From Candidatus Omnitrophota bacterium (GTDB lineage Bacteria > Omnitrophota > Gorgyraeia > 2-02-FULL-51-18), in the NCBI GenBank assembly GCA_023247915.1, contig JAHFFN010000003.1, positions 4,081 through 68,080 of the forward strand: DNA of 64,000 bases, written 5' to 3'. The notes under the pieces are model-generated. The model saw only the letters and a list, made by a program, of their open reading frames with translations. It made no database searches and had not been told where the DNA came from. A program made the position numbers and the translations under genes. Positions 62,123 through 64,000 of the stretch are shown here, piece by piece (positions within the stretch are counted from its first letter, which is position 1; every line of letters begins with the position of its first letter).

Positions 62123-64000
62123 ATGAAGCAACAAGAAAGCAAACCGCAATCCCATCACCCGCTCCTTTCGAGCGGGTTTTCTGCTTTAAGACCCTACGCA
62201 TTAAGAAAACTATTTATAAAGAACATCTCATGGAGTCTGATTCTGAGCCTAGCCTATTCCCAGATGCTGTACGCGGCAGACCCAAGACAAATACTGGCTA
62301 GTGCCAAGCTCGGCTTTCAAGAAGACAATCCGGAGCGGGGATCGGTCGGGATGGGATCTTCGGAGCTTGCCGCTAGTCAGTCTTCCGCTGAGAACCGTGT
62401 CGCTCAGGCCAATAATCTCAACGACCTCATCGACCAGAATCCCACTTTCAGTCTCACCACCCAAAACGGCGACATTCTAAACTATGTCAATGGCAAACTC
62501 CTAAGCGTCAAACAAAAAGATGGCAACACCTTAAACGGAATCTCTTTAGACTCAAGCGGCCTCATCACAAGTGCCAATCTCACTCTATCTGACGGCTCCG
62601 TCCAAATCTTTGAAAACGGCCAAGTAATCTCATATGCCATGCCCGACGGCTCAACCATCTTCTATAGAGCAGGGCAGATTGACCACACTTTCTCCAAAGA
62701 CGGCTTACGTTCCGATTACGGCTATGACGAGACAGGCAAAACACTTCTCTGGATCAAATCCAATAAACTTCAAACCTTCTATAATCCCGACGGCTCTCTA
62801 AAAGAGACTGTCTCCGAAGGCAAACGAACCCTCTATCAAAACGGCCTCCTGGACCGCATCCTTAACCCCGATGGCACCTCTTTTATCTATAAGACCTCGG
62901 ACGACCAAACCAAAGTAATGCTCTATTCCTTCATAGATTCCAAAGGCCTAGAGTTTGTTCTGTCTGTCGACAAAATGACACTCACTCAAGGCGACCACTC
63001 CTATGAGTATGATCTAAACGGCACTCTAAGACGCATTACCTATCAAGACCATTACTGCGATCTCTACACCTCCGGTGAATTTAAAGGGCTCATCCAACAC
63101 ATCTTTTATTCACCCACTAGTGAAAACCGTTATGTTTACTCTAAGAACCCAGACGGCACCATTCGCTATGACCTCTACGCCAAAGTCCAAAAAACCAAGA
63201 AATTTGGCTTGTCGAATCGCGATTACTGGACTTGGGCAAAAGTCGGAGGCGGGCAAGGGATTGCCTTGGGGACACCGCCCACACCGATAGCCCCTAGTTC
63301 TCTCAGCCTCCCCGAACTAAGATACATTCTCTACTCAGACTCCAAGACTCCTTTAGAAGTCGTCAAATCAGATGGCACCAAAGTCACCTTTAAAGACGGT
63401 CTCCCTGACCAAGTCACCGATAAAGAGGGAAATCTTGTAAGCGAATTCACATTTGATCAGAATGAATATTTAAATCTCACCGGCACTCAAATCACACAAA
63501 ATAATCTGAATGTCTCTTACGACGCCAAAGGAAATCTCGCCCAAGTAAAAGTGGGCGACCTTACTATTCATTACAAGGACAAAGACATCGACTTTATTAC
63601 TAATGATAATGGCACTGCCACCGAGGATGATGACGTTGATCTTAAAAATATTAAGTTTAGCGGCGAAACTAATGTCATTACAGACGTCACCATATTGTCA
63701 TCCGACGGAGAAGAAAGAACTTATAAAGATGGGCATCTCATCAAACTTCGTCGAGCCGATGAGACCATTCTTGACTACCACTTTGATGAGATTCTAAAAG
63801 AACTCCAAATTAATAAACTCACGACACCGGAAACACTGGTTTATAACTTTAATTACACGGCACCCGACACCATCACGGCTGAGCTTGATCTAGCCGCCTC
63901 AAAAATTCTCCCCAATCAAGACCTGATCAAAATGATGGAGTATTCGGCCGATTATTCGCTCAAAAAAATAATCCGCCAAAATAATGAATCCATCAGTTAT
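62123..64000 (+). CDS. secreted YD-like repeat protein, 3-prime partial (open to the window end); not in the supplied ORF track
   Basis: My own translation from the ATG at 62123 gives MKQQESKPQSHHP...ISWSLILSLAYSQMLYAAD, then degenerate DG(S/T)xxxY / YxYDxxG repeats (SDYGYDETGKTL, YEYDLNGTLRRI, VSYDAKGNLAQV). I found no in-frame stop through nt 64000. Confidence 0.7.
   Translation, partial: MKQQESKPQSHHPLLSSGFSALRPYALRKLFIKNISWSLILSLAYSQMLYAADPRQILASAKLGFQEDNPERGSVGMGSSELAASQSSAENRVAQANNLNDLIDQNPTFSLTTQNGDILNYVNGKLLSVKQKDGNTLNGISLDSSGLITSANLTLSDGSVQIFENGQVISYAMPDGSTIFYRAGQIDHTFSKDGLRSDYGYDETGKTLLWIKSNKLQTFYNPDGSLKETVSEGKRTLYQNGLLDRILNPDGTSFIYKTSDDQTKVMLYSFIDSKGLEFVLSVDKMTLTQGDHSYEYDLNGTLRRITYQDHYCDLYTSGEFKGLIQHIFYSPTSENRYVYSKNPDGTIRYDLYAKVQKTKKFGLSNRDYWTWAKVGGGQGIALGTPPTPIAPSSLSLPELRYILYSDSKTPLEVVKSDGTKVTFKDGLPDQVTDKEGNLVSEFTFDQNEYLNLTGTQITQNNLNVSYDAKGNLAQVKVGDLTIHYKDKDIDFITNDNGTATEDDDVDLKNIKFSGETNVITDVTILSSDGEERTYKDGHLIKLRRADETILDYHFDEILKELQINKLTTPETLVYNFNYTAPDTITAELDLAASKILPNQDLIKMMEYSADYSLKKIIRQNNESISY

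Follow-up and report, generated by a model that had tools for sequence, protein, structure and literature searches.

Omnitrophota are very small bacteria, for the most part uncultured, that are thought to live on other cells or to prey on them, and very large surface proteins are the main suspects in this. Here we describe the first part of a gene for one such candidate protein, which starts at position 62123 of a 64,000-nt stretch of the Candidatus Omnitrophota bacterium assembly GCA_023247915.1 (contig JAHFFN010000003.1, positions 4,081 to 68,080; hereafter the window) and runs past the window end. A second giant gene, at 32957, encodes an RHS protein and serves as a contrast throughout. The best explanation of the evidence as a whole, and one we regard as quite likely, is that the gene at 62123 encodes a large exported YD-like repeat protein and has a conserved promoter and an attenuator hairpin.

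The closest described proteins of the phylum are the Omnitrophota giants of the Archaeovorin and Dockerin types (West-Roberts et al. 2023, bioRxiv 10.1101/2023.11.21.568195; Nielsen and Lui 2026, bioRxiv 10.64898/2026.06.07.730766). In the parts of these preprints that deal with them, the giants are credited with signal peptides, with C39 peptidase domains near these, and with extended antiparallel-beta structures compared by the authors to RHS repeats, and the 2026 preprint mentions a 24-protein PF03412 architecture cluster. As described there, they are 10,000 to 147,000 aa long, have many enzyme domains and transmembrane segments, and lie near type II secretion system (T2SS)-like and pilZ genes. 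The family that we describe belongs to the same phylum and, on that description, shares with them a C39 domain (in relatives of our protein) and RHS-like antiparallel beta structure; it differs from them in its size of 2500 to 5600 aa, its few recognisable domains, and its position beside a receiver regulator. Term searches of the main texts of the two preprints turned up no mention of a promoter, operator, or hairpin.

A second comparison is with the Rhs/YD shells (RhsA, 7q97 and 8qjb; TcB-TcC; teneurins). Like these, the family has a long run of ~20-residue beta hairpins with DG/YD-type turns, and its proteins are large and predicted to be extracytoplasmic. Unlike them, it lacks the Rhs-associated core and the DPxGL autoprotease, and our protein falls below the curated hidden Markov model (HMM) cutoff; in addition, a Sec-type leader stands in place of the PAAR/VgrG adaptor of Rhs effectors, and global superposition is poor. 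Polymorphic toxin systems, too, are listed as having C39-like domains, with Tox-PL-C39 as one of their releasing peptidases (Zhang et al. 2012, PMC3482391). Relatives of our protein resemble these systems in having a C39/ComA-like papain-fold domain within a large repeat-bearing secreted protein, but the domain lies in the interior of the protein, a glycine-rich hydrophobic region comes after it, and manual alignment gives an apparent Ser at its Cys position. The C-terminal regions of the family, unlike those of polymorphic toxins, are largely common to its members and not freely polymorphic. Since both the published giants and polymorphic toxins have C39-like domains, and the giants RHS-like beta structure as well, the body of the protein is a variant of already described types; the promoter with its palindrome, the shared leader, and the intragenic hairpin are the features most worth following up.

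The gene and its protein family

From the ATG at 62123, 626 codons pass without a stop to the last base of the window, against 28 to 52 stops in each of the remaining five frames (six-frame count over 62123-64000). An in-frame stop lies at 62078, and ATG 62123 is the first start codon after it. The frame is missing from the list of open reading frames (ORFs) because the lister leaves out those that run off the end of the source, as the sequence-only reading that first pointed to this frame had supposed. A sister contig in ENA (ERZ27296333; 22,108 bp) encodes an identical response-regulator protein and, across a 220-nt intergenic spacing equal to that of the window, a gene in the matching position whose start, as placed by the gene caller, agrees with ATG 62123. 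That gene reaches at least 2157 codons and is itself cut by the contig end, which rules out an early stop just past the window, the outcome that would have told against the suggestion that another giant gene begins here. With relatives mostly 2500 to 5600 aa long, that suggestion holds. The stretch from 62123 to 64000 thus belongs to a real gene, at least 6.5 kb long, of which the window contains about the first quarter.

An exhaustive phmmer/HMMER search returned 189 relatives, of which 36 lie at E ≤ 1e-30; the top identity is 37%, and none of the relatives carries a useful name. Other routes to the family yielded little: a word-indexed homologue search gave no match with the ORF and only one 329-aa fragment with the family profile, and patterns derived from the ORF alone found no relative in GTDB genomes and JGI metagenomes. 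The scan of GTDB genomes that succeeded used an 8-sequence conserved core as the query and returned 14 loci, all in metagenome-assembled genomes (MAGs) of Omnitrophota or in MAGs labelled as Planctomycetota-Verrucomicrobiota-Chlamydiota (PVC; "uncultured Planctomycetia"), with two family copies apiece in three of the genomes. Among the collections searched, these proteins of 2500 to 5600 aa therefore form an uncharacterised family restricted to Omnitrophota and PVC-labelled genomes. The result defines a mid-sized, unnamed family with RHS-like sheets and a C39-like domain but without the Rhs toxin-release core, and it indicates for annotation that ORFs at contig ends that curated HMMs miss can still be placed through exhaustive profile and fold searches.

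The positional orthologue of our protein is P0004, a complete protein of 2772 aa from a groundwater metagenome (relatives are cited below by P number and loci by L number). The order of genes at its locus is that of the window: GAF kinase, two receivers, HD-GYP protein, two divergent HisKA_7TM kinases, receiver, and giant gene. The window receiver is 71% identical to its counterpart in the Omnitrophica MAG LH-05nov19-156. The dense signalling cluster of the window occupies 44692-61902, comprises four HisKA_7TM histidine kinases, a GAF kinase, an HD-GYP protein, and three stand-alone receivers, and for the most part keeps synteny with L003 and L004.

For the 626 residues, AlphaFold (mean predicted local distance difference test score [pLDDT], 73) predicts a signal-peptide helix followed by a helical stalk and, beyond the stalk, ~50 short beta strands arranged in hairpins. 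The hydrophobic segment covers aa 30-53 behind an extension of 27 residues, and segment and extension both align with relatives, in keeping with the delayed signal or anchor noticed from the sequence; the consensus of the family leader is K.IS..L..TFS.SQ.L.AADVRQ. The stalk region is conserved in the family and also in the RHS giant of the window. Homology blocks common to our protein and its relatives span residues 28-280 (module A) and 385-626 (module B), the latter ending at the window edge on the family motif KK.IRQN.E..sY. Where our protein has a linker between the two, relatives have inserts with lectin-like or carbohydrate-binding module (CBM)-like domains. Eight [DN]G[ST] sites and the predicted hairpins bear out the degenerate DG(S/T)/YD-type repeats that had been read from the sequence.

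Judged from sequence and model, the protein would open with a long N-terminal extension ahead of a Sec-type signal peptide and continue with the helical stalk, after which the YD-type beta hairpins of modules A and B would form one long sheet. Beyond the window, P0004 and the complete relatives suggest further hairpin blocks, a coiled coil, a C39-like papain-fold domain with an apparent Ser at its catalytic Cys, a glycine-rich hydrophobic segment, and a C-terminal region that varies in type. Pfam places the C39-like domain ~2000 residues into P0001, P0003, P0004, P0011, and P0014, and the equivalent in our protein would lie beyond the window. RHS_repeat, C39, Laminin_G_3, and CBM-like domains are the only Pfam matches in the relatives. 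Compared with PCAT1, the C39-like domain aligns at its His and Asp positions (HFVVITG...YMDPG versus HFVVIYS...VADPG; E 0.002), and the stretch after it is glycine rich and hydrophobic. P0004 as a whole has one hydrophobic region.

The last 200 aa of P0001, P0011, P0013, P0018, P0019, and P0005 have an invariant Ser in (Y/H)SG(G/S/A), where a strand is predicted to meet a helix, and, close to the end, a His that is likewise invariant; other members end differently. These features hint at a serine alpha/beta-hydrolase in the six tails, for which the model reaches a pLDDT of 53 and the best fold match an E of 0.02, which is not significant.

The kinship with Rhs proteins appears at the level of the family. 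A 26-sequence profile of module A searched against the PDB retrieved Rhs 7q97 first (E 2.2e-6), followed by teneurin-4, Tre23, and Tse5. Whole relatives pass the curated repeat models: PF05593 (RHS_repeat; cutoff, 22 bits) scores 35 bits on P0004 and 32 bits on P0001, and TIGR01643 scores 29.3 bits on P0004. Within the N-terminal regions of our protein and 16 relatives, RHS_repeat was found at E ≤ 0.01 in 7 of 17 (best, 2.7e-12), our protein not among them. All of the top 34 PDB matches of the model in Foldseek (probability 1.00; E 1e-15 to 1e-7) are Rhs effectors, teneurins, or Tc BC components. Together these comparisons of sequence profiles and predicted folds support calling the protein YD-like in the sense of distant homology, at family level, to the Rhs, teneurin, and Tc shells. 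The sequence-only reading had proposed a second secreted YD-like repeat ORF; the YD likeness stands as distant homology, and a second RHS gene it is not.

Promoter, shared leader, and in-frame hairpin

The 18-mer ATTTGACAAATAANCATT occurs exactly at 32882 and 62047, upstream of the two giant genes, and the window holds five matches to it at ≤3 mismatches, a number that no shuffle reached. The two genes had been thought to share a promoter string, and they do: the 18-mer is part of a conserved promoter made up of a palindrome, a −35 box, and a −10 box, in which the −35 box lies 73 nt (RHS giant) or 74 nt (gene at 62123) from the ATG. When 14 promoter instances were aligned on TTGACA, this hexamer was present in 14/14 and TGTAnnnT, in which the TG that closes a 17-nt spacer meets the −10 TAnnnT, in 13/14. 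In every one of the 14, the palindrome, of the form [AT]TGA-N7-TCA[AT]A (consensus, tnTGAttnttaaTCAAAt), begins 27 to 28 nt before the −35 box ends. A second palindrome copy farther upstream, as in the window, is also found at L003, L008, L015, and L020. Within the 64-kb window, the composite TCAAA-N4-8-TTGACA has just two occurrences, one ahead of the RHS giant and the other ahead of the gene at 62123; across loci it is present once per locus, on the gene strand and directly upstream of the family gene, at 12 loci plus a variant at L014 and further instances at L020 and L021, 15 in total. The exact 12-mer of the originally proposed string is not conserved in the other genomes, whereas this looser composite is. 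Comparison thus shows a conserved promoter, sigma-70-type by its sequence, with an operator-like palindrome before it, the same for the RHS gene at 32957. A longer alignment of the two upstream regions, of ~100 nt, was dropped, as a shuffle test left a local element of ~46 nt significant; the stretch upstream of the 18-mer was not (216/1000 shuffles).

The similarity continues into the proteins. A leader-only profile built without our protein and run against 122 ORF fragments of the window selected our protein (2.9e-25) and the RHS giant (2.8e-9), with the next at 2.4, so that the two genes share an N-terminal leader in addition to a promoter.

On the other side of the intergenic region, the divergent receiver has orthologues directly upstream of the family gene at L003, L007, and L015 (66 to 75% identity, versus 26 to 36% for other receivers), and it stays beside the family gene even where the remaining neighbourhood differs. 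In four genomes, then, sequence comparison shows an orthologous stand-alone receiver as the conserved divergent neighbour of the family gene. At two of these loci, a gene for an XRE-type helix-turn-helix (HTH) plus cupin regulator lies between the receiver and the family gene (L003 8853-9799; L007 7135-8086) and is a candidate binder of the palindrome, as is the product of a Cupin_2 gene upstream at L020 1-322. The window encodes no homologue of the HTH-cupin protein.

The coding region itself contains an intrinsic-terminator-like element (Table 1), whose stem-loop (62157-62177) starts 34 nt past the ATG and is followed directly by TTTTCTGCTT. The hairpin has a predicted dG of −14.6 kcal/mol and a z score of −5.6 (−3.2 to −6.5 across genes). 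It is present in 7/7 genes that bear the N-terminal extension (ours and those at L003, L008, L013, L019, L020, and L021) and in 0/10 short-form genes within 330 nt of the promoter, the background rate being one per 4550 nt, and the distance from start codon to stem is 30 to 40 nt in all seven. In a structure-anchored alignment, 57/57 pair cells are paired and five positions are compensatory, a result matched by 0/2000 partner shuffles; RNAalifold on a plain MAFFT alignment recovered the same six-pair core helix. As the frame is open through the element in 7/7 and, in our gene, no alternative start precedes the signal peptide, the hairpin must be translated. Rfam had no match at the leader or the hairpin. 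Separately, a weak A/U-rich 7-bp hairpin (62103-62121) surrounds the GGAG ribosome-binding site in the predicted 5' transcript, and the whole leader folds slightly better than its shuffles do (z = −1.9).

A familiar precedent is pyrBI of E. coli, which is controlled by translation-coupled attenuation; there the leader peptide has a small ORF to itself, and the coupling depends on UTP-sensitive pausing. As in pyrBI, an intrinsic terminator would lie inside a translated leader, where a close ribosome would block the hairpin and allow read-through; unlike in pyrBI, the leader continues in frame into the signal peptide of the structural protein. Fusion of an attenuator with the signal peptide encoded by the same gene would, to our knowledge, be a new arrangement. 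Translating ribosomes are known to suppress intrinsic terminators (PMC5021804, PMC4824070), and since ribosomes close behind the polymerase do so, the simplest reading of the hairpin at 62157-62187 is a translation-coupled attenuator in the extension-bearing subfamily, as we infer from these comparisons. A ribosome following closely would melt the hairpin, and the giant gene would be transcribed; when translation is uncoupled, transcription would stop after ~100 nt. If the hairpin is such a translation-coupled gate, it shows how cells spare wasted transcription of giant genes, and the signature of palindrome, −35 box, and hairpin could be used to find co-regulated genes in metagenomes.

An alternative to the attenuator is that the hairpin has no RNA function and arises as a side effect of conservation at the peptide level (motif P-L-x-x-x-G-F-F) in an extended signal peptide. 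It is consistent with a region that is in frame and open in all seven genes, most of which encode P..(A/S)GF(F), and with the extended signal peptides known from autotransporters and two-partner secretion proteins. In these, ESPR (PF13018) adds 20 to 30 residues before a classical signal peptide, and our protein is similar in having added N-terminal residues ahead of the signal peptide of a very large secreted protein. It is dissimilar in sequence, with no match to the Pfam ESPR model, and its extension is variable except in the part that encodes the hairpin. Pairing is kept where the peptide changes (L020, CCTGC/GCAGG; L013, CACCG/TGGTG; L021, where the peptide varies with the stem to GPRRAGRSIL), the same Pro codon, CCG, is used in 7/7, the register of the 3' arm differs between our gene and the other six, a U-tract follows the stem in 6/7, and the distance from start to stem is held at 30 to 40 nt. 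We therefore find a peptide by-product doubtful and retain the attenuator.

Several findings nonetheless weigh against our overall explanation, and we collect them here. Regarding the protein, our sequence by itself fails both curated models (PF05593, 11.3 bits, E 0.48; TIGR01643, 11.0 bits against a cutoff of 15.8, E 0.48), so that the HMM check proposed in the sequence-only reading comes out negative for the ORF alone, while the family-profile and fold matches support a YD-like protein. Foldseek superposes the 626 modelled residues on known structures with TM-scores of only 0.12 to 0.16 and a root mean square deviation of about 30 Å, which points to a likeness in the local hairpin sheet more than in a closed cocoon. 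Everything past residue 626 is drawn from relatives at 35 to 40% identity, and at the Cys position of their C39-like domain GQSAF faces DCGAA, putting Ser for Cys in a stretch that HMMER left unaligned and that we aligned manually. Regarding regulation, Pfam finds no output domain in the receiver at 61516-61902, and the genes adjoining ours in the window include none for a DNA-binding regulator of the palindrome. Regarding the hairpin, the structure-anchored covariation comes from seven sequences aligned around anchors set by hand; the plain sequence alignment shows two compensatory pairs only and several "broken" cells, fewer pairs than in the anchored alignment because two arms are misplaced in it; and the U-tract is weak at L021.

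In a more tentative vein, these elements may together make up a dedicated expression module with which Omnitrophota produce big secreted contact proteins, consisting of a fixed operator palindrome, a portable leader, an orphan receiver partner, and, in one subfamily, an in-frame attenuator. In such a module, the palindrome would sit 27 to 28 nt from a consensus −35 box, one leader could be attached to a YD-like family protein or to a true RHS toxin, and a terminator within the first 20 codons would permit the 7- to 17-kb transcript only if the polymerase already has a ribosome coupled to it. Whatever the standing of the module, the promoter with operator palindrome shared with an RHS toxin gene, the orphan receiver, and the covarying hairpin in the coding sequence provide regulatory handles on the family.

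A third promoter of the same architecture, which may belong to the same regulon, is found at 42388-42641, ~1 kb downstream of the RHS giant. It comprises the palindrome TTGATTATAAATCAAA (42388-42403), a −35 box TTGAAT, a 17-nt spacer ending in TG, a −10 box TATACT, and AGGAGG before ATG 42462, the start of a 59-codon ORF (MQKCQTPEISKPMTDNDSIERLRYIQ...) with no homologue in the fetched loci. The identical palindrome TTGATTATAAATCAAA occurs at L002 5136-5152 (equivalent to L016 4896-4912), just upstream of a small OMP_b-brl beta-barrel gene; the genome concerned also encodes P0011, whose own family gene is without the promoter element.

Table 1. Features of the gene at 62123, its upstream region, and the related parts of the RHS giant gene (window coordinates)
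Feature	Position	Strand	Basis or remark
5' 1878 nt (626 codons) of large secreted YD-like repeat protein gene	62123..64000	+	Gene of at least 2157 codons; runs past window end
GGAG ribosome-binding site	62108..62111	+	11 nt ahead of ATG 62123
N-terminal extension, aa 1-27, before signal peptide	62123..62203	+	Variable among relatives except where the hairpin is encoded
Intrinsic-terminator-like element in coding sequence: 8-bp stem ACCCGCTC/GAGCGGGT (6 G-C pairs), 5-nt loop, then TTTTCTGCTT	62157..62187	+	Terminator scan
Signal-peptide-like region, aa 28-51: basic LRKLFIK, hydrophobic NISWSLILSLAYSQML, YA|AD	62204..62275	+	Hydropathy; leader-only profile, 3e-25
Predicted helical stalk, aa 54-105, with conserved Q..V.Q.N.L.DL helix	62282..62437	+	AlphaFold helices 54-67 and 79-105; pLDDT about 45-72
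Module A, beta-hairpin repeat sheet, aa 108-313, from NFSLTTQNGD	62444..63061	+	pLDDT 85-93; 27 relatives aligned, 33-40% identity
Linker, aa 314-398	63062..63316	+	pLDDT 38-56; P0022 the only aligning relative
Module B, second conserved beta-hairpin block, aa 399-626	63317..64000	+	pLDDT 75-92; 21 relatives aligned
Sigma-70-type promoter: −35 TTGACA (62049-62054), 17-nt spacer ending TG, −10 TACTCT (62072-62077)	62049..62077	+	
Proximal operator-like palindrome TTGAATAAAAATCAAA	62026..62041	.	Centre ~51 nt upstream of predicted transcription start (near 62084)
Distal palindrome copy, TTGA-N7-TCAAA	61940..61955	.	Response-regulator end of intergenic region; direct repeat
Divergent stand-alone receiver-domain response regulator, 128 aa	61516..61902	-	Pfam Response_reg, E 3e-29
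Palindrome/−35/−10 promoter of RHS giant	32863..32912	+	Inverted repeat and promoter alignment
Leader of RHS giant, aa 1-73, homologous to family leader	32957..33175	+	Leader-only profile, 2.8e-9

Codon usage and the question of a foreign origin

The gene at 62123 had also been noticed for favouring codons that end in C, and codon statistics confirm the impression. Third positions are C at 0.38 and G at 0.13, and the third-position skew, (C−G)/(C+G), of 0.50 exceeds that of every one of 117 control segments of equal size (mean 0.05, standard deviation 0.09, maximum 0.17; z = 5.1). GCG, GTG, ACG, and TTG are nearly avoided: GCG is used at 0.04 versus 0.36 elsewhere and GTG at 0.04 versus 0.37, with CTC at 0.39 versus 0.12 and GTC at 0.64 versus 0.23. 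Its strongest part is 62400-63000, and it falls toward the 3' end. The divergent response regulator, on the opposite strand, has a C-over-G skew of 0.49, and the equal coding-strand skew of two divergent genes indicates that the bias follows transcription and not replication. A replication-strand skew was accordingly ruled out as the cause; translational selection of the ribosomal-protein type was unsupported, those genes favouring G-ending as much as C-ending codons and the gene at 62123 showing no change in its Asn, Tyr, and Phe codons.

This composition raises the question of whether the response regulator and the giant gene are a recently acquired foreign island. The extreme skew that the two genes have in common, seen in no neighbour, is what such an island might show; the window is compositionally patchy, and at L003 the corresponding pair and the HTH-cupin gene are also richer in G+C at third positions (GC3) than their neighbours. 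The pair is nevertheless in conserved synteny with the surrounding kinases at L003 and L004 and so is not a fresh insertion. Family genes of the unrelated genomes at L007, L002, L009, and L014 are biased in the same direction relative to their neighbours (those at L003, L015, and L006 are not), in each of the two divergent genes the skew goes with the direction of transcription, mobility genes are absent from the flanks of the pair, and no donor can be identified, the best identity being 37%. We consider recent acquisition unlikely and favour a gene-specific pressure as the cause of the codon bias.

The next-highest C-over-G third-position skews in the window, 0.30 and 0.21, belong to the ORFs at 43478-44083 and 44154-44834. 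The G+C content of the window is ~0.49 over the first 32 kb (1-32 kb), which holds ribosomal-protein and housekeeping genes, and 0.38 to 0.40 over 48-62 kb, and codon usage shifts accordingly.

A surface protein or a toxin-releasing shell

The likeness to Rhs proteins invites the alternative that the gene at 62123 is a second canonical RHS polymorphic toxin like that at 32957, that is, a closed cocoon with an autoprotease and with toxin release via a type VI secretion system (T6SS) or Tc-like system. The hairpin repeats do resemble those of Rhs proteins in profile and fold, the promoter and leader are common to the true RHS gene, and phmmer with the RHS giant matches P0098, P0005, and P0063, which are family members with canonical RHS regions. 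The parts that make an Rhs protein a releasing device are, on the other hand, missing from the family. The autoprotease motif PxxxxDPxG[LWMIV] was found in 0/81 long family members, whereas the RHS giant of the window carries it as PVNWIDPLGL at aa 1176; the Rhs-associated core (Rhs_assc_core, TIGR03696) has no match in P0004, P0001, and P0006, whereas the RHS giant has one, together with 236 bits on the YD/RHS model. The N-terminus is a signal peptide and not a PAAR or VgrG-binding domain, and no VgrG, PAAR, or TcA was called within 10 kb at L002, L003, and L004 or among the window genes scanned. Added to the low TM-scores to closed cocoons, these results leave a canonical RHS toxin distinctly improbable. 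In its body, the protein is not a paralogue of the RHS protein encoded at 32957 and belongs to a different family without the Rhs core. Since the family lacks the Rhs-core autoprotease, its sequence suggests that the protein is probably an exported surface or contact protein and not a toxin-releasing Rhs cocoon.

Pfam scans of the relatives showed no toxin domain, and the genes downstream of family members encode TPR proteins or are small unknown ORFs. A hypervariable tail resembling that of polymorphic toxins, proposed from P0004 alone, was dropped when most family tails proved to match 15 to 20 of 25 other tails.

The two remaining alternatives can be dealt with briefly. A MORN/YwqK-type repeat protein is suggested by the JGI name of P0056 ("antitoxin component YwqK"), by a G....Y.nG repeat pattern that is superficially MORN-like, and by MORN_2 at E 0.007 in P0001, yet this last match (PF07661; 16.8 bits, cutoff 29.6) is confined to P0001 and is absent from our protein, profile and fold searches return Rhs, teneurin, and Tc proteins instead of MORN proteins, and the family proteins have signal peptides and are thousands of residues long, so we give the idea hardly any credence. 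That the frame is a decaying, non-functional remnant or open by chance, for which nothing speaks but its truncation at the window end and the missing curated-family match, is for practical purposes already refuted by the 626 open codons, the length on the sister contig, the modules conserved across 189 relatives, and the conserved promoter.

Two further observations concern other parts of the window. Rhs proteins normally carry the core just ahead of the C-terminal toxin; the RHS giant (32957-41458) has its Rhs-associated core mid-protein (aa 1106-1185), followed by a second long RHS-repeat block (about aa 1750-2310) and fn3/Ig-like domains, a layout unusual for Rhs. A cobalamin riboswitch (RF00174; 103.9 bits) lies at 14530-14731, upstream of a 714-codon ORF at 14754-16898.

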